Below, piece by piece: positions 1,647-56,481 of a stretch of 64,000 bases of DNA. The stretch is taken from positions 40,219 to 104,218 of the forward strand of contig JAOSJO010000024.1 of assembly GCA_027494055.1 (NCBI GenBank), given 5' to 3'. Positions within the stretch are counted from its first letter, which is position 1, and each line of letters opens with the position of its first letter. Below the pieces are notes generated by a model. It worked only from the letters and a program-made list of their open reading frames with translations. It was not told the DNA's origin and ran no database searches. This DNA is from Anaerolineae bacterium (GTDB taxonomy: Bacteria > Chloroflexota > Anaerolineae > Aggregatilineales > JAFGMM01). The translations under genes and the position numbers were made by a program.

Positions 1647-3292
1647 TCAAGGCGCTTCGAGCGGCAGCGCATAACACGGCCCTTGGGTCGCGGTATACCA
1701 CGACGCGATCCAACCGCGCGCGCCGCCGTAATCGATGCGCCACCACCCCCTGCCATTCTCAAGGGTGCGCCCCAACACCTCGACCGTCGCCGGCCGCTTG
1801 AGCGTGCCCAGGATCTGGTATGTGGTGCCCGGACCGGCGCGCACGTTGAGGTCGGCAGTGATGCTGGCGCGGCACGGCCCGGCGGGCGTCGGCTCTGCGG
1901 TGGGCGTCACTGGCGCTGCGGGCGGCGCGGCGGGGAGGGTCGCCGGTTGTGGGTCGCGGCGGCGGTCGGCGAAACGTCGCGGCGCGCCAGCAGGTCTGCC
2001 GGGCGCGCGCGCAGCATGAGCGCCGGCTCTGGCGGGCCGAAGGTGGCGTCGGCGGGCATCCCCGGCTTGAGTGCGAGGTCCGGGTTGGCGAGCCATATCG
2101 CGACCGCAAAGACCACGTTGGCGCGCTCGTCGCGCGTGGTGACGTTGCGCGGCGTGTACTCGGCCTCGTCCGCGACGCGCCGCACCACGCCCCGGAATGT
2201 CTGGCCGGGGAAGCTATCCACGGCCACGGTGACGGCCTGCCCCTGCGTCACGCGGCCCAGGTCGGGCGAGGGGATGTACACCGTGAGCGTGAGCTGGCTC
2301 AGGTCGGCAAGCGACAGGATGGGCGCGCCGGCGGCGACGGTCTCGCCAGGGTGCGCCAGGCGCTCGATCACGATGCCGTCGAGCGGGCTTTCGATGTCAT
2401 ACAGCGTCAGTTGGGAGTGGTAGGCGTCCGCCTGGGCCGCCACGAAGGCCAGGTTCGCGCGCGCAACGTTGATCTCCTCCGGCGTCGGGCCGGCGAGCAG
2501 GTCGTCGAGTTCGGCCTGCGCTACGGCAACCGCCTGCGCCGCAAGCCGATACGCGCCTTCGGCCTGGTTCGCCTGGGCGACGAGGTGCAGCGGGTTGTTG
2601 ATGATCGCGCGCAACTGCCCGACGAGCGTATAGGCGGCGTTGCGGTCGGCCTCGGCGGCGGCGAGGGCTTCACACGCGGCGGCAAGTTGGTAGTCGAGGA
2701 CGGTGCGGCGCGTGGGGTCCACGTCGCCGCTGACGCCGTTACTCTCCAGCTCCAGCCGCGCGAGGTCGGCACTGGTCTTCTCCACGCCCTGGTCGGCAAG
2801 GCGCGCCTGGGCGTTGGCCTGGGCGAGCTTCGTGTTCAGGTCTTGCGGGTTTTCGACCATTGCCAGCGCGTTCTGCCGCTGCGCGTAAGCGCCCTCGGCG
2901 TCTGACTGGGCGCGGGCGAGCGCGGCGCGGGCGGCGCGCACTTCTTCTTCACGCGGCCCGGCGAGCAGCAGGTCGAGTTCCGCCTGCGCGGCGGCGACCT
3001 CCGCCTCGGCCTCGGCGAGCTGGGCCGCGACGGCGGCGCTGTCGAGCGTCACGAGGCGCTGGCCGCGCCGCACCCGCGCACCCTCCTCCACGTGGATCGC
3101 CTCCACCTCCCCGCCGAACTCGTGCGCCAGGCGCACCACGGTCGCCTCGATGACGCCGGAGGCCGTCAGCGGCGGGGCGCTGGTTGCGGCCTGGTCTTGA
3201 GGCGCGACCGGGAGCAACGGCACGGCAAAGCCCGCGACGGCCAGGCACGCCGCCACCGCCAGAACAACGCCGAACGCGCACCGCCGCTTCAT
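1647..3292 (-). CDS. HlyD-family efflux periplasmic adaptor with C-terminal SH3b-like domain (frameshift near 1950-1980)
   Basis: ASGVIEA..GGEVEAIHVEEG..VRRGQ, IESPLDG, AEYTPRNVTTRDER, LKPGMPADATF; Pro/Thr linker then LNVRAGPGTTYQILG..WWRI..GWIA in another frame. Confidence 0.8.
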
Positions 3293-34633: not shown

Positions 34634-34706
34634 TACCCCCGGACGGATTCGAACCGCCGACGCCCGGTTTAGGAAACCGGCGCTCTATCCTCTGAGCTAC
34701 GGGGGC
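34634..34706 (-). tRNA. tRNA-Arg (CCT)
   Basis: GCCCCCGTAGCTCAGAGGATAGAGCG CCGGT-TT-CCT-AA-ACCGG ..GGTTCGAATCC..GGGGGTA. Confidence 0.96.
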
Positions 34707-50526: not shown

Positions 50527-51894
50527 ATGGCAAAACGAGGCGAAGGCATCCCCACCCAGAGACCCACTGAAGTCAGACGCCGCCACCTCTCGCGCGCCGA
50601 ACGCGAGCAGCGCATGAACCGGATCATTCTCGCATCCGTGATTGTGCTCGTCGCCGTGGTTGTGACCTTGCTTGTCGCGGGTGTGGTATATGAGGTCGCC
50701 GTCAAGCCGAGCCAACCGGTCGCCATCGTCGGCGACGTGTCGATCACCACGGCGCAATTTCAGGAACGGGTGAAGCTGCAACGCTACCAGACTGTGCTTC
50801 AGCTTGGGAACCTCGCGCCGTTCTACGGCACGTGCGACACCGCCGACTCCTCCTCGCCGATCTACCCGCTCTGCCAGCAGGTTCAGTTCCCGACGCTGAT
50901 GGGGAGCGAGGTGCTCAATACGATGGTCGAGGAGGAGATCATCCGGCAGGAGGCCGCCGCGCGCGGCATCACGGTGTCTGACGAAGAGGTCCAGCAAGGG
51001 GTGTACGGCCTCTTCGGGTACGACCCCACCGGCAGCACCGCCACGCCGACCCTCGAACCGAGCGCCACGCCGACCCGGCGCTACACCGTCACGCCCAGCC
51101 CTGAGCCAACCGCCACCCTGACGCCGACGGGCACGGTCACGCCGCCGGCGACGCCCACCGCGACGCTGGAACCGATCGCCACGCCCACAGCCACGGCGAC
51201 GCTCACCGCCGAGGAGGCGCGCGCGCAGTACGACGAAAACTACAGCAACCAGATGCAGCTTGTCGCTTCCCTGTCCGGGATCAGCGAGGAAGCCTACCGC
51301 GACGTCCTGAAGACCCAACTGCTGCGCGAGAAGCTCGCCGAGCAGATTGGCGGGAACGCCATTGCGGAGGTTGTCGATCAGGTCTACATCCGCATGATGC
51401 GCACCCAGACCGAGGCCGAGGCGATTGAGTTGCTCGAAGCGCTGCGCGACGGCGAGAGCTTCGCGGCCCTGGCGCGCAGCGCCGACGCGACTGCGCAGTC
51501 GAGCGACCCGAACCGCTTCTCTGGCGGCGAGATGGGTTGGCAGCCGCGCAACGAACTGCCCATCGTCGTGGGCGACCGGGCGTTCGAGGCCGAGATCGGT
51601 GCCATCATCGGCCCGGTCCGCGACATCGATGTCGAGGCCGCGGCGCAGGGTATGCCGTCGGAGTACTACTACATCGCGCAGGTGCTCGATCACCAGGTCC
51701 GCCCGCTTGACGAGGCGATCCTCCAGCAGCAGCGCGACGAGTTCTTCAACACGTGGCTGAGCGGCAAGCGCACCCAGGCCGAGACCTTTAGCTACTGGAC
51801 CGAGCGGGTGCCCGAAGACCCGACAGGCGCGCAGATTGAGCAGGAAATCAACCGGTTGTTCGGCCAGACGGAGACGCCAGAAGGCGGATCGTAG
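50527..51894 (+). CDS. PrsA/SurA-like parvulin peptidyl-prolyl isomerase
   Basis: TM anchor, VAIVGDVSIT, SurA-N helices, GESFAALA..GGEMGW. Confidence 0.85.
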   Translation: MAKRGEGIPTQRPTEVRRRHLSRAEREQRMNRIILASVIVLVAVVVTLLVAGVVYEVAVKPSQPVAIVGDVSITTAQFQERVKLQRYQTVLQLGNLAPFYGTCDTADSSSPIYPLCQQVQFPTLMGSEVLNTMVEEEIIRQEAAARGITVSDEEVQQGVYGLFGYDPTGSTATPTLEPSATPTRRYTVTPSPEPTATLTPTGTVTPPATPTATLEPIATPTATATLTAEEARAQYDENYSNQMQLVASLSGISEEAYRDVLKTQLLREKLAEQIGGNAIAEVVDQVYIRMMRTQTEAEAIELLEALRDGESFAALARSADATAQSSDPNRFSGGEMGWQPRNELPIVVGDRAFEAEIGAIIGPVRDIDVEAAAQGMPSEYYYIAQVLDHQVRPLDEAILQQQRDEFFNTWLSGKRTQAETFSYWTERVPEDPTGAQIEQEINRLFGQTETPEGGS

Positions 51895-51895
51895 G

Positions 51896-51924
51896 TTGAC
51901 AAAGCGCCCGAAGTCATATATGCT
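51896..51924 (+). promoter_or_regulatory. Sigma70 promoter of the arg operon
   Basis: TTGACA(51896-51901)-N17-TATGCT(51919-51924). Confidence 0.7.
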
Positions 51925-51945
51925 TCTGAGCGTTGAGCGAATGCG

Positions 51946-52047
51946 ATGAAAATAGTCTTTAACCTCCCGCGCCGTCAAAGCCGTCGTACCCCGTCCACCC
52001 TTTACGGGTTCGGACAGGCGATTGCGCGCGCCCTGGGAGTGGTGTAA
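51946..52047 (+). CDS. Putative arginine attenuator leader peptide (33 aa)
   Basis: MKIVFNLPRRQSRRTPSTLYGFGQAIARALGVV*; Arg codons 9, 10, 13, 14; overlaps the antiterminator strand; SD weak. Confidence 0.6.
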   Translation: MKIVFNLPRRQSRRTPSTLYGFGQAIARALGVV

Positions 52048-52073
52048 CCGTTTAGGGCCAAGTCGCGAATCCT

Positions 52074-52108
52074 GCCCCCGGACCCGTAGGTCCGGGGGCT
52101 TTTGTTTT
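52074..52108 (+). terminator. Intrinsic terminator in the argC leader (attenuator)
   Basis: GCCCCCGGACC-CGTA-GGTCCGGGGGC-TTTTGTTTT, ending about 30 nt before argC. Confidence 0.88.
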
Positions 52109-52139
52109 GCCTGCGAGCTTTGGGAGGCACAAAGCCATT

Positions 52140-53153
52140 ATGATCAAGGTTGGAATCTACGGCGCGACGGGATACACCGGCATCGAGCTGGCGCGGCTGT
52201 TGTGGCGGCACCCGGAGGCGCAGGTTGCCTTTGCGACCTCGCAGAGCAACGCCGGCGGGACGCTTGCCGGGGTCTACCCGACCGCGCCGCCCCTCCCGCT
52301 CACCAGCCCCGACGAGGCCGACCCCGGCAGCGTGGACGCCGTCTTCCTGTGCCTGCCGCACACTGCCGCCGCGCCGGTCGCCGCCGCCGCCGTCTCCGCC
52401 GGGGCGCGCGCCATCGACCTTTCCGCCGACCTGCGCCTGGACTCGCCGGAGGTCTACCGGCAGTGGTACGGGGTGGCGCACCCTGCGCCGCACCTGTTGC
52501 CCGCGCCCTACGGCCTGCCGGAGATCAACCGCATCAACATTGCCGGCGCGCGCTGGGTCGCCAACCCCGGCTGCTACGCGACCGCGGTGCTGCTGGCAGT
52601 GTACCCGCTCATCAAGGCGAAGGCGCTGATGCCGAGCGCGCCGATCATCGCCGACGCGAAGTCCGGCGTCTCCGGCGCGGGCCGGACGCCCAAACTTACC
52701 ACGCACTTCGCCGAGGTCGCCGGGAACTTCTCGCCCTACAACATCGGGCGGGCGCACCGGCACGTGGCGGAGATCGAGCAGGAGCTGAACCGGAATGGCG
52801 GCGCGCCAGGGCCGTTGATCTTCTCGCCGCACCTGCTCCCGGTTGACCGGGGCATCCTCGCCACGGTCTACGCCCAGCTTGACCCCGACAACGCGCCCGC
52901 CGGCGCGTACCACACGCTCTACCAGGAGATGTACCGCGACGAGCCGCGCGTCCACGTGCTGCCGGCGGGCCAGCTCGCCACGCTGAGCCACGCGGTGCGC
53001 ACCTACGATTGCGTGCTCTCGCTCACGCCCGTGGACGAGTTCACGCTCATCATCGTCTCGGTGATCGACAACCTCCTCAAGGGCGCGGCGTCGCAGGCGG
53101 TGCAGAACTTCAACCTGATGTTTGGGCTATCAGAATCCTGCGGGCTGGAATAA
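52140..53153 (+). CDS. argC: N-acetyl-gamma-glutamyl-phosphate reductase
   Basis: GATGYTG, DLSADLRL, YGLPE, ANPGCY, SGVSGAGR, IDNLLKGAASQAVQN. Confidence 0.97.
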   Translation: MIKVGIYGATGYTGIELARLLWRHPEAQVAFATSQSNAGGTLAGVYPTAPPLPLTSPDEADPGSVDAVFLCLPHTAAAPVAAAAVSAGARAIDLSADLRLDSPEVYRQWYGVAHPAPHLLPAPYGLPEINRINIAGARWVANPGCYATAVLLAVYPLIKAKALMPSAPIIADAKSGVSGAGRTPKLTTHFAEVAGNFSPYNIGRAHRHVAEIEQELNRNGGAPGPLIFSPHLLPVDRGILATVYAQLDPDNAPAGAYHTLYQEMYRDEPRVHVLPAGQLATLSHAVRTYDCVLSLTPVDEFTLIIVSVIDNLLKGAASQAVQNFNLMFGLSESCGLE

Positions 53154-53180: not shown

Positions 53181-53936
53181 ATGATGCACCTGACCCCTAT
53201 TGTGATCAAAGTCGGCGGCAACGACCTGGAAGGCCCGGACTTCGTCGCGGGGCTGGCGCGGGCGGTCGCCCGCCTGGAAGCGCCCGCCGTGATCGTACAC
53301 GGCGGCGGGCGCGAGATCAGCGCCTTGCAGAGCCAGCTTGGCCTCGCGCCGCGCTACGTGGACGGTATGCGCGTCACCGACCCGGAGTCGCTGGCGGTGG
53401 CGGAGATGGTGCTGTCGGGCCGGGTGAACAAGCGGCTGGTGGCGGCGCTGCTGAAGGCGGGCGTGGACGCCATCGGCGTCAGCGGCGTGGACCGTGGCCT
53501 GATCCGCGTCGAGAAGATGGACCATCCCGGCGGCGACCTGGGGCGCGTGGGGCGCGTGGTCGCGGTGCGCGGTACCGTGCTCATGGAGTTCCTGGAGGCG
53601 GGCGTGACGCCGGTGATCTCGCCGATTTCGCTGGGGCCGGATGGGGCTTACAATGTGAACGCAGACCACGCCGCCGGGGCGATTGCGCTTGCCATCGGCG
53701 CATCGGCGGTGACCTTCATCACCAACGTGCCGGGCGTGCTGGTGGGCGCGCAGGTGGCGTCGTCGCTGACCGCCGTGCAGGCGGAGCAACTGATCCAGAC
53801 CGGCGTGATTCACGGCGGCATGGTGCCCAAGACGCATGCGGCGCTCCAGGTCGTGGCGGGCGGTGTGCCGCGCGCGGTCATCACCGACCTGGGCGGCCTG
53901 GCGGGCGGGGTCGGCACGGCCTTTGTCGCCGCGTAG
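53181..53936 (+). CDS. argB: Acetylglutamate kinase
   Basis: VIKVGG, VHGGG, GMRVTD, NVNAD, GGMVPK. Confidence 0.96.
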   Translation: MMHLTPIVIKVGGNDLEGPDFVAGLARAVARLEAPAVIVHGGGREISALQSQLGLAPRYVDGMRVTDPESLAVAEMVLSGRVNKRLVAALLKAGVDAIGVSGVDRGLIRVEKMDHPGGDLGRVGRVVAVRGTVLMEFLEAGVTPVISPISLGPDGAYNVNADHAAGAIALAIGASAVTFITNVPGVLVGAQVASSLTAVQAEQLIQTGVIHGGMVPKTHAALQVVAGGVPRAVITDLGGLAGGVGTAFVAA

Positions 53937-53982: not shown

Positions 53983-55171
53983 ATGAACGGCCACGATACC
54001 ATCGCGCTTGAGAAGCAATACGTTGTCCAAACCTACCCCAGAGCGCCCTTCGTCCTCACGCACGGCGAGGGCGTGATCGTCTACGACGCCGGCGGCAAAC
54101 CCTACCTGGACTTTGTCGCCGGCATTGCGGTCAACGCGCTGGGCCACGCCGATCCGGAGATCGGCCAGGTCATCGCCGAGCAGGCCGGCCGGCTGATCCA
54201 CACCTGCAACCTCTACCACACCGCGCCGCAGGCCGAGCTTGCGCGCGACCTGTGCGCGAAGAGCTTCGCGGACCGGGTCTACTTCTGCAACTCCGGCGCG
54301 GAGGCCATCGAGGCGGCGATCAAGTTCGCGCGCAAGGCGGCGCGCGTGCGCTACGGGCCGGGCAAGACCGGCGTGGTGGCCTTCCACGGGGCGTTTCACG
54401 GGCGCACGATGGGCGCGCTCGCGCTCACCGCGCGGGAGAAGTACCAGGCGCCGTACCGCCCGCTGATGCCCGACGTGACCTTTGCGCCGTTCAACGACGC
54501 TGAGGCGGCGGCGCGCGTCATCGGCCCGGACACGTGCGCGGTGTTCGTCGAGCCGATCCAGGGCGAGGGGGGCATCAACCCGGCGCAGCCTGCGTTCCTG
54601 CAGGCGCTGCGTGCGCTGTGCGACCGCTACGGGGCCTTTCTGGTCTTCGACGAGGTGCAGTGCGGCATGGGGCGCAGCGGCCACCTCTGGGCGCACGAGC
54701 CGGGCGGCGTCACGCCGGACATGATGGCGCTGGCGAAGCCGCTGGCCGGGGGCCTGCCCATCGGCGCGACGCTCGTGACCGAAGCGGTCGCGTCCACGCT
54801 TGAGGTGGGCGACCACGGGAGCACCTTCGCCGGCGGCCCGCTGGTGACGCGCGTGGCGCAGGTCGTCCTCGCGCGCGTGAGCGCGCCGGCGTTCCTGGCG
54901 CACGTGCGCGAGGTCGGCGGCTACCTGATGGACGAACTGCGCGCGCTCAAGTCGCCGCACATCAAGGAGGGTGCGCGGCGCGGGGCTGATGGTCGGCGTC
55001 GAGCTTGGCGTCGAGGCGATCAAGCTGGTCCATGCCGGGTATGAGGCTGGGCTGCTGCTGCTCAACGCCGGGACGCATGTGCTGCGGCTGGTGCCGCCGC
55101 TCATTGTGGAGAAGGAACACGTTGACGTGCTGGTTGGGCGGCTTGGCGAGCTGCTGGAGAGCGTAAGCTGA
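53983..55171 (+). CDS. argD: Acetylornithine aminotransferase (frameshift near 54970)
   Basis: YLDFVAGIAVNALGH, NSGAEA, FHGRT, EPIQGEGG, DEVQCG, AKPLAGG, HGSTFAG. Confidence 0.95.
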
Positions 55172-56422
55172 TGGCGGCGCGCGCGATACACCGGCCCATG
55201 GCGGCCATCGACGCCGCGCTCGGTGAGCTGGCGCAGGTGCGCGGCTTCAGCGCAGCGGGCGTGCACTGCGGCCTCAAAGCGGGCGACGCGCTCGACCTGG
55301 CGCTGCTGGCGAGCGACCGTCCCTGTGCGGCGGCGGGCGTCTTCACGACCAACCGCGTGAAGGCCGCGCCGGTGGTTTACGATCAGGCGGCGCTGGCGCA
55401 GGACGCGGGCAATATGCGCGCGGTCGTGGCGAACGCCGGCATCGCCAACGCCTGCACGGGGGCGGCGGGCTACGCGCACGTGGAACAGACCGTGCGCCTG
55501 GCGGCGGAGGCGCTTGGGGTCGCGCCGGCGGGCGTGCTGGCGCTCTCCACCGGCGTGATCGGGGTGCCGCTGGACATGGACAGGATGGCGCAGGGCGTCA
55601 CGGCGGCGGCGGGCCGGCTGCACGCCGCTGGCTGGCCGGACGCGGCGCGCGCCATCATGACGACCGATACGCGGCCCAAGGCGTCATGCCGGGCGGCCGG
55701 CGGGTGGCGCGTCGGGGGCGTCGCCAAGGGCGCGGGCATGATCGCGCCGGACATGGCGACGATGCTGGCGGTCCTGGTCACCGACGCGCAGATCGCGCCG
55801 CCGGACCTGCAGCGGGCGCTGGCGGCGGCGGTTGCGGTCAGCTTCAACCGCATCGTGGTCGATGGCGACATGAGCACCAACGACACGGTGCTGCTGCTCG
55901 CCAACGGCGCGTCGGGTGTGGCGGTTGCGGGCGACGCGCTGGGCGCGTTCCAGGCGGCGCTGACCGAGGTGTGTGTCGCGCTGGCGCAGGACATCGTGCG
56001 CGACGCCGAGGGCGCAACGCGCTTCGTGACGCTGCGCGTGACCGGCGCGCCCGACGTGGACAGCGCGCGGCAGGCGGCGCACGCGGTGGCGACCTCGCCC
56101 CTGGTCAAGACGGCGCTCTACGGCGGCGATCCGAACTGGGGCAGGGTGCTGGCCGCGGTTGGGCGCAGCGGCGTGCCGGTGGAGGCGGACCGGCTATCGC
56201 TTGATGTTGACTTCGTGTAGTGATGAGACAACGGCCCAGACGGTCCAACTGGTCGCGGGCGGCGCGCCGACCGGCTACGATGAGGCGAAAGCCGTCCAGT
56301 TGATGGGCGCGCCGGAGATCGCGCTGACGCTCGACCTGGGGATGGGCGAGGCAGAGGCGACGGTGTGGACCTGCGACCTGAGCCACGACTACGTGACGAT
56401 CAACGGCCACTACCGGACGTAG
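55171..56422 (+). CDS. argJ: Bifunctional ornithine acetyltransferase ArgJ (frameshift near 56210)
   Basis: FTTN..AAPV, ANACTG, STGVIG, MTTDT, KGAGMIAPDMATML, DGDMSTND, TCDLSHDYVTINGHYRT. Confidence 0.96.
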
Positions 56423-56451: not shown

Positions 56452-56481
56452 ACAGGGGCGCGGCGCACGCTGCGCCCCTAT
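56452..56481. repeat. REP-like palindrome / bidirectional terminator
   Basis: aggggcgcggcgcacgctgcgccccta between convergent genes. Confidence 0.55.

Follow-up and report, generated by a model that had tools for sequence, protein, structure and literature searches.

Introduction

Leader-peptide attenuators are familiar from proteobacteria, where they precede the trp, his, leu, thr, ilv and pheA genes, and textbook attenuation covers histidine, tryptophan, leucine, threonine, isoleucine/valine and phenylalanine, with arginine assigned to ArgR/AhrC and, in some Firmicutes, to T-box RNAs. Here we analyse a stretch of 64,000 nucleotides (hereafter the window) from an Anaerolineae bacterium of the phylum Chloroflexota (contig JAOSJO010000024.1, positions 40,219 to 104,218), in which a short leader lies upstream of the arginine biosynthesis gene argC. 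Judged from its sequence, this leader is very probably a classical, trp/his-type ribosome-mediated transcription attenuator tuned to the charging of tRNA-Arg.

Like the trp and his attenuators, the argC leader combines a promoter-proximal short open reading frame (ORF) and tandem codons for the end product with 2:3 and 3:4 hairpins that exclude each other, a predicted 1:2 hairpin that competes with 2:3, and a terminator that stands before the first gene. It differs from the proteobacterial attenuators in that arginine would be sensed, in its Chloroflexota lineage and in having no match in Rfam, as well as in the lack of a Shine-Dalgarno sequence at the argC locus and in a stop codon that, in this genus, lies beyond region 2. 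ArgR/AhrC and the arginine T-boxes perform the same task, which is feedback control of arg genes. A T-box likewise senses tRNA-Arg charging and chooses between a terminator and an antiterminator, but at the argC leader it is the ribosome, rather than a direct contact between RNA and tRNA, that would read the charging state.

The phrase ‘arginine attenuator’ denotes, in the literature that we searched, the fungal arginine attenuator peptide. This peptide is encoded by an upstream ORF of arg-2/CPA1, and high arginine stalls the ribosome through the conserved nascent peptide, with an effect on translation. As would be the case for the argC leader, an upstream ORF thereby links arginine supply to an arginine-pathway gene by ribosome stalling, but the fungal system is eukaryotic, follows the opposite logic and involves no terminator. 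Another comparison is offered by SpeFL, an arrest peptide that senses ornithine and acts together with Rho-dependent termination. The orf34/SpeFL leader controls the polyamine gene speF in Salmonella and E. coli; its short ORF contains consecutive Arg codons, and translation of this ORF alters the structure of the mRNA in response to the supply of arginine (PMC6386406), much as is proposed for the argC leader. Unlike SpeFL, the argC leader carries an intrinsic terminator with a 2:3 antiterminator and is directed at arginine synthesis, and the two sequences are unrelated.

A survey from 2005, in the part of its text that was accessible, places arginine among the pathways regulated by T-boxes and names attenuators for histidine, threonine and phenylalanine only (PMC1262725). 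Our own search of the literature, with subscription-only papers and supplementary files outside its scope, yielded no leader-peptide attenuator described for arginine synthesis or in Anaerolineae. Comparative-genomics work on attenuation published in Russian may also be relevant to whether an arginine attenuator is new.

Results and discussion

An arginine codon run and competing hairpins upstream of argC

The window belongs to contig C24 of a 5.7-Mb assembly (28 contigs, 86% complete, 66.5% GC). Four features that characterize a classical attenuator are present upstream of argC, all on the forward strand: an ORF behind a promoter, a cluster of codons for the end product of the pathway, an intrinsic terminator, and a conserved antiterminator that excludes it. 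The promoter is of the sigma-70 type (51896–51924; −35 box TTGACA, 17-nt spacer, −10 box TATGCT) and agrees with the consensus at 10 of 12 positions. Sites of this class number three in 8 kb by scan, against 0.6 expected, and the one before the argC leader is retained in a genome of the same genus. Its −10 box is followed after 21 nt by the ATG of the leader ORF (51946–52047), whose 33 codons end in a TAA stop and which is evident from the sequence and the list of ORFs. The same-genus genome has a leader ORF of equal length, with no insertion or deletion. Four Arg codons fall within six codons of the leader, CGC CGT (51970–51975) and, after two other codons, CGT CGT (51982–51987), and the genes that follow are argC, argB, argD and argJ. 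A preliminary description of this DNA had noted the promoter, the ORF, the Arg codons, the terminator, the antiterminator and the downstream arg genes, and all of them lie where it had placed them.

The RNA downstream of the Arg codons can be divided into regions that pair in mutually exclusive ways. Region 1 (51990–52000) begins 2 nt past the last Arg codon and forms the 5′ strand of a predicted anti-antiterminator hairpin, pairing with 52006–52018 in the minimum-energy fold of 51988–52108. Region 2 (52003–52027), delimited by duplex energies and folds, begins 15 nt past the last Arg codon and can pair with either region 1 or region 3; its core is a version of the motif GGUCYGG, shared by the leader family, in which one pair is a G-U wobble. 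Region 3 (52064–52088) supplies the 3′ strand of the antiterminator and overlaps the 5′ arm and loop of the intrinsic terminator that is formed by regions 3 and 4 (52074–52108). The terminator stem (52074–52099) comprises 11 base pairs, 10 of them G-C, closed by a 4-nt loop, and the U-tract that follows it reads TTTTGTTTT.

The antiterminator proposed in the preliminary description, 52005–52013 paired with 52078–52086 plus an extension, is indeed the best duplex that we could find, with an energy of −26.2 kcal/mol against −25.6 kcal/mol for the terminator. It is also the minimum-energy fold of a partial transcript that spans 52001–52088 (−43.4 kcal/mol), in which 52003–52013 pairs with 52078–52088 and extensions are added. 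The free transcript from 51988 to 52108 folds differently, into the 1:2 hairpin, a middle hairpin and the terminator (−59.4 kcal/mol). The earlier account had left out the 1:2 hairpin (51990–52000 with 52006–52018), which would be covered by a ribosome halted at the Arg codons; its proposal that such a ribosome frees the antiterminator strand is retained here with that hairpin added.

From this anatomy we infer leader translation, ribosome stalling and a read-through that responds to arginine, in the following sequence of events. Transcription would start from the promoter at 51896–51924, and a ribosome would begin to translate the 33-codon leader. When charged tRNA-Arg is scarce, the ribosome would stall on the four CGY codons at 51970–51987 and cover region 1, leaving region 2 free to pair with region 3 as soon as the latter is transcribed. 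The resulting antiterminator would occupy seven of the 11 nucleotides of the terminator 5′ arm as well as the loop, and polymerase would continue into argC-argB-argD-argJ. When Arg-tRNA is plentiful, or when the leader is not translated at all, regions 1 and 2 would pair, the terminator at 52074–52099 would form ahead of its U-tract, and transcription would stop. In this genus, antitermination would be prevented by re-formation of the 1:2 hairpin and not by a ribosome that rests on region 2.

Conservation of the leader among relatives

The leader is a real, conserved cis-regulatory element. When the argC protein was used, in an unbiased pass, to search 40 relatives from the same order, 33 gave a match, and the loci of 29, which represent seven families, were fetched. 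All 29 carry an ORF that starts with ATG and contains three to six Arg codons within eight codons, followed by a terminator. Eight same-order argC loci collected earlier by a DNA search likewise all have an ORF with an Arg run and a terminator, and one of them (L017) belongs to one of the four genomes for which no locus was fetched in the protein-based pass (G021).

Beyond the order, we sampled the class with one genome per family and found the leader at 11 of 17 orthologous argC loci (49–58% identity). Six loci are negative: at three of them argC follows without an intergenic gap, at another the upstream sequence is just 184 nt long, a fifth has a degenerate leader that contains only one Arg codon, and the last shows nothing. 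Paralogues of argC in the same genomes (36–41% identity) provide an internal control, and none of their 12 loci has the leader. In other classes of the phylum, the yield was a single weak candidate, with a GTG start and a hairpin of −8.6 kcal/mol, at 24 loci (a twenty-fifth, from genome G095, is excluded from this count). The search for an Arg-cluster ORF with matching antiterminator and terminator upstream of argC, which the preliminary description had proposed as a check, thus gave a positive answer in both the order and the class.

Public metagenome-assembled genomes with taxonomic names give a similar picture. Among the argC loci closest to the query, curation identified the leader at 34 of 43, in genomes labelled Anaerolineae, Thermoflexus/Thermoflexales, Ardenticatenales, Caldilineaceae, Promineifilum, Aggregatilineales and similar, and three argC loci labelled Chloroflexaceae lack it. 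The positive loci include L049, from a genome labelled Ardenticatena, and L022, from one labelled Thermoflexus. Automated criteria arrive at the same total of 34 of 43 by adding one plausible (L042) and one false locus (L043) and by dropping two with only two Arg codons each (L045 and L054).

In another class of the phylum, three argC loci (L152, L154 and L171, from genomes G105 and G081) are preceded by a conserved hairpin with a T-rich tail, located behind a promoter. There is no Arg-rich ORF in these regions and no Rfam match at gathering score, and the hairpin may be a different leader element.

RNA architecture of 43 curated leaders

To characterize the element further, we assembled 43 curated leaders, nine from the order and 34 from the named genomes. 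A terminator is present in all 43, and a promoter-like site is found 5′ of 28, with 4–62 nt between the −10 box and the leader ATG. The region 2 core is GGUCYGG or a variant and stands opposite CCRGACC in the terminator apex. A comparable C-rich stretch (region 1) immediately follows the Arg codons and is likewise able to pair with region 2. Energies of the best pairing that region 2 makes with the loop and 5′ arm of the terminator span −13 to −31 kcal/mol (median z −2.24), and for 30 of the 43 leaders the value is equalled by no more than 10 of 200 shuffled sequences.

From the last Arg codon to the start of region 2 the distance has a median of 14 nt (range 2–26), and a ribosome with the last Arg codon in its A site would cover the RNA up to just short of region 2. 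In 27 of the 43 leaders, the stop codon is close to where region 2 begins (−13 to +16 nt), so that a ribosome reaching it would mask region 2.

We also exchanged partners among the 43 leaders and ranked the pairing energies. The leader's own terminator has a mean rank of 8.9 of 43, against 21 expected, and 10,000 random draws never gave a value below 14.6; the mean energy is −23.4 kcal/mol with the own partner and −19.0 kcal/mol with a foreign one. A covariance model (R1) built from 13 leaders was used to re-align 26, and in this alignment, which was not fitted to the antiterminator, 72.9% of antiterminator cells are paired, against 31–49% when the partner strand is slid. Covariation in the antiterminator is 0.106 against 0.077 in shuffles, and this value is reached by one of 500 shuffles; the number of antiterminator pairs changed on both sides, six of 14, is not significant (111/500). 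For the 1:2 hairpin and the terminator, to which the alignment was fitted, 83.9% of cells are paired and 15 of 17 pairs have changed on both sides, including, for the terminator, all eight modelled stem pairs.

The model R1 matches only 20 of the 41 genomes of the order although 29 of 29 argC loci there bear the leader, which means that R1 is insensitive to some leader families and that tallies based on it understate the distribution. Two matches (L189 and L194) have no leader ORF and were judged false.

The leader peptides have 15–40 residues, with 1–17 codons ahead of the Arg run, and across families the Arg run is the only part that they share. Moreover, the region 2 core is read in frame 0, 1 and 2 in 8, 8 and 14 leaders, respectively, and follows the stop codon in nine. 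A sequence that is found in all frames or outside the ORF is conserved as RNA and not as peptide, the Arg run excepted. This observation bears on a second mechanism that the preliminary description had entertained, namely a metabolite-sensing arrest peptide like SpeFL. With such a peptide, or with one of the fungal type, the ribosome would be halted by free arginine or ornithine within its exit tunnel, independently of tRNA charging. The leader peptides are certainly short and rich in Arg, in several families Pro codons alternate with those of the Arg run in a recurrent pattern, and leaders of the SpeFL type bear Arg codons as well (PMC6386406). However, an arrest peptide would be hard to reconcile with the absence of any cross-family peptide conservation outside the Arg run and with a region 2 core that is translated in three frames or not at all. 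Judging by the geometry, a stall at high arginine would also promote antitermination, the opposite of what a biosynthetic operon requires, and the use of the same RNA design with His codons before his genes (see below) is better suited to codon sensing. We consequently find no support for a SpeFL-like arrangement and regard an arrest peptide as very unlikely.

Codon choice and the tRNA-Arg complement

In 408 long ORFs of this genome, CGC accounts for 59.7% of Arg codons, CGG for 24.4% and CGT for 5.5%, which bears out the earlier impression that CGT is uncommon here, and three of the four codons in the argC leader are CGT. The 43 curated leaders together contain 76 CGT, 71 CGC, 22 AGG, 6 CGA and 4 CGG codons. 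Most lineages use CGC or CGT, and several families outside the order use AGG. The use of CGY in some lineages and AGG in others indicates that the codons themselves, and not the RNA alone, are under selection.

Genes for tRNA-Arg with the anticodons CCG (two copies), CCT, GCG, TCG and TCT were found in the assembly. An ACG anticodon was not found in this 86%-complete assembly, leaving GCG as the sole CGY-reading tRNA-Arg gene found. If the absence of ACG is real, then CGT would be read by G-U wobble and would be the codon most sensitive to starvation, and the rare, wobble-read CGT codon combined with a single CGY-reading tRNA gene would offer a testable case of codon choice that tunes an attenuator. 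The window itself holds genes for tRNA-Arg(CCT) and tRNA-Gln (window 34634–34706).

Observations that weigh against attenuation

Several results run counter to the model of a ribosome-controlled attenuator, and we consider them together here. The first concerns thermodynamics. Even with region 1 blocked, as it would be by a stalled ribosome, equilibrium favours the terminator fold by about 10 kcal/mol (−54.8 against −44.2 kcal/mol), so the choice between folds would have to be kinetic. A second concerns geometry. The stop codon in this genus lies 17 nt past the end of region 2, a departure from the textbook arrangement; the codon after region 2 is CAG where relatives have TAG, and the ORF continues for 11 more codons. 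As a result, the earlier proposal that a ribosome at the stop codon melts the antiterminator suits the relatives better than it suits the argC locus itself.

Statistics from the single locus are also weak. The antiterminator energy at the argC locus is unremarkable (z −1.66) and is equalled by 14 of 200 dinucleotide shuffles, and when the whole genome was naively scanned for ATG ORFs that have four or more Arg in seven residues and precede a terminator, 139 rows were returned, nested starts included. Taken by itself, therefore, the locus hardly rises above chance, and it is the conservation in relatives that makes the feature significant. A looser automated scan similarly flags seven of 37 loci from other phyla, six of which look like the tail of a ribosomal-protein gene upstream together with its terminator; because of this lack of specificity, the scan served only as a filter. 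One might accordingly suppose that the leader is a chance mixture of a promoter-like site, an Arg-rich ORF brought about by high GC content, and the terminator that belongs to the peptidyl-prolyl isomerase gene upstream, which ends at 51894, so that some terminator nearby is to be expected. But the terminator lies downstream of the promoter and the ORF and not directly after the upstream gene, and the arrangement recurs before argC at 29 of 29 loci of the order, whatever gene stands upstream, and before argG as well. We consider the probability of such a coincidence to be negligible.

The comparative evidence has weak points of its own. In contrast to the 2:3 pairing, the 1:2 pairing does not pass the partner-exchange test (own −11.0, foreign −10.5 kcal/mol), which is expected if every region 1 bears the same motif. 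The counts of 1:2 pairs given above come from an alignment fitted to that structure. RNAalifold, applied to a plain MAFFT alignment of 28 leaders, returned no consensus structure. The leader families are too divergent for alignment by sequence, and for this reason we turned to alignment-free energy tests and to the covariance model.

Shine-Dalgarno-like 4-mers precede the ATG in 6 of the 43 leaders, where 4.1 are expected, which is no enrichment, and the argC locus has none, so that leader translation would need initiation of the short-leader or leaderless kind. Assembled contigs from RNA libraries cover 52050–52411, a span that runs from the terminator into argC, as well as 51775–51984 and 52132–52308; these contigs reveal neither transcript starts nor transcript ends, and carry-over of DNA is possible.

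Could the RNA element be real and the ORF incidental, with termination governed by the binding of a protein or small ligand, or with the terminator acting constitutively and only in part? The missing Shine-Dalgarno enrichment, the abundance of chance Arg-rich ORFs in GC-rich genomes and the thermodynamic dominance of the terminator fold are all in keeping with this explanation. It does not, however, account for the presence of an in-frame ATG ORF with an Arg run at every one of the 29 loci of the order, nor for the encoding of Arg by two unrelated codon families (CGY and AGG) according to lineage. The codon run furthermore fits the pathway, with Arg before arg genes and His before his genes, and the median spacing of 14 nt between the Arg run and region 2 suits the reach of a ribosome, on the footprint size that is generally assumed. 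An incidental ORF therefore seems unlikely to us, and a ribosome-mediated attenuator is the reading that we carry forward.

Known regulators of arginine genes

A search with the ArgR model TIGR01529 gave no match in this genome (86% complete), and 30 further genomes of the class yielded only two weak partial matches of 22–25 bits. The same search detected ArgR in nine of 14 control genomes and gave good matches in four of 37 genomes from other classes of the phylum, a set that includes G095, which has no match.

A T-box scan had been suggested in the preliminary description as a way to dismiss the attenuator. Even at permissive thresholds (E up to 10), Rfam models detected no T-box and no leader family between 51000 and 53000, and no match at gathering score was obtained in 14 related loci. 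In another class of the phylum, a T-box-like sequence lies upstream of argC (locus L165, genome G099, 2635–2998, reverse strand), where RF00230 scores 56.4 bits (E 1e-11) against a gathering score of 93. It seems that the RNA by which tRNA-Arg charging is sensed differs from one class of the phylum to another.

Further arginine leaders and related histidine leaders

The argC leader is not the only representative in its genome. A second Arg leader, which came to light in the naive genome scan, lies on contig C1 (1082580–1082678, reverse strand; locus L114) and has four CGT and two CGG codons, a very similar terminator and a TTGACA promoter of its own. It is followed by a GNAT gene akin to short N-acetylglutamate synthases (argA-like) and then by argG, an arrangement shared by the same-genus genome, and argG (623 bits) is immediately preceded by an Arg leader in one genome from a different family. 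The argA-like gene appears frameshifted here when compared with the 182-residue orthologue in the same-genus genome (L191). In another genome of the same family (G002, locus L190), an Arg leader with a terminator precedes a gene for a secreted M28-family aminopeptidase (PF04389, 95 bits). This arrangement, observed in one genome only, may place arginine scavenging under the same control. The reach of the leader among arginine genes is incomplete, which must be added to the points raised against the model: in this genome, neither argH nor argF is preceded by one. The carA gene was not found above the cut-off.

Although R1 was built from Arg leaders only, it also detects leaders with His codons before hisG. 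In this genome, one such leader precedes hisG-hisD (contig C25, 87095–87230, reverse strand; L113, 28.4 bits), and others stand before hisG in three relatives (L192, L193 and L196). A further His leader lies before hisS in this genome (contig C22, approximately 207289–207393; L225, 140–243). The terminators of the His leaders have the same design as those of the Arg leaders. In the two that were scanned, L113 and L192, the Rfam His-leader family gave no match at gathering score; this family is RF00514 (PMC9413887).

Taken together, these observations incline us, if only slightly, to a broader view in which a class without a convincing ArgR controls its arginine regulon through tRNA-Arg charging as read by the ribosome, by means of a modular attenuator chassis whose codons are exchanged between pathways. 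The regulon would comprise argCBDJ, the argA-like gene with argG and, in one genome, the secreted M28 aminopeptidase. The chassis would consist of a region 2 with GGUCYGG that faces CCRGACC at the terminator apex, preceded by Arg codons at arg genes and by His codons at hisG and hisS.

If this view is correct, the argC leader would be the first arginine-specific classical attenuator, and Arg leaders at arg operons across the class would fill a gap among the amino acids that are sensed by ribosome stalling. The occurrence of one chassis in both Arg and His leaders suggests that attenuators evolve and diversify by codon swapping. Attenuation of this kind would also explain how arginine synthesis is controlled in a large, mostly uncultured lineage that apparently lacks ArgR and is common in sludge and bioreactors, and it would extend the cis-regulatory families on which annotators and RNA libraries can draw.

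Elsewhere in this genome (contig C25, forward strand, at about 241.4 kb), a short ORF that contains several Thr codons in a row stands before a terminator and could be a Thr leader.

The argC operon and its surroundings

The leader is flanked upstream by a gene for a PpiC/SurA-like peptidyl-prolyl isomerase (50527–51894). Within the leader ORF, a promoter-like site on the opposite strand (51949–51978) agrees with the consensus at nine of 12 positions and is probably due to chance. Downstream of the terminator, a ribosome-binding site (GGGAGG, 52122–52127, forward strand) precedes argC (52140–53153, forward strand), which is identified by TIGR01850 with 353.7 bits against a cut-off of 233.6. 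On the same strand follow argB, coding for acetylglutamate kinase (53181–53936; TIGR00761, 206 bits against a cut-off of 151.3), and argD, coding for acetylornithine aminotransferase (53984–55044; NCBIfam), for which the ATG at 53984 was taken as the start and whose profile match leaves the final 65 or so profile positions uncovered.

The last gene, argJ (55171–56422, forward strand; NCBIfam), occupies two frames, with most of the protein in 55171–56220 and the C-terminal 60 or so residues in 56159–56422, an apparent frameshift in the assembly. The argH gene of this genome is similarly present as two overlapping pieces (contig C22, 651878–653229), and contigs from a related strain have one additional T after position 52099. 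The frame change in argJ and the short argD (window 54971–55171 and 56159–56422), the split argH and the extra T suggest insertion or deletion errors in the assembly rather than real pseudogenes. A terminator scan places a terminator-like hairpin with a T-tract at 56454–56479 (forward strand), at the end of the operon.

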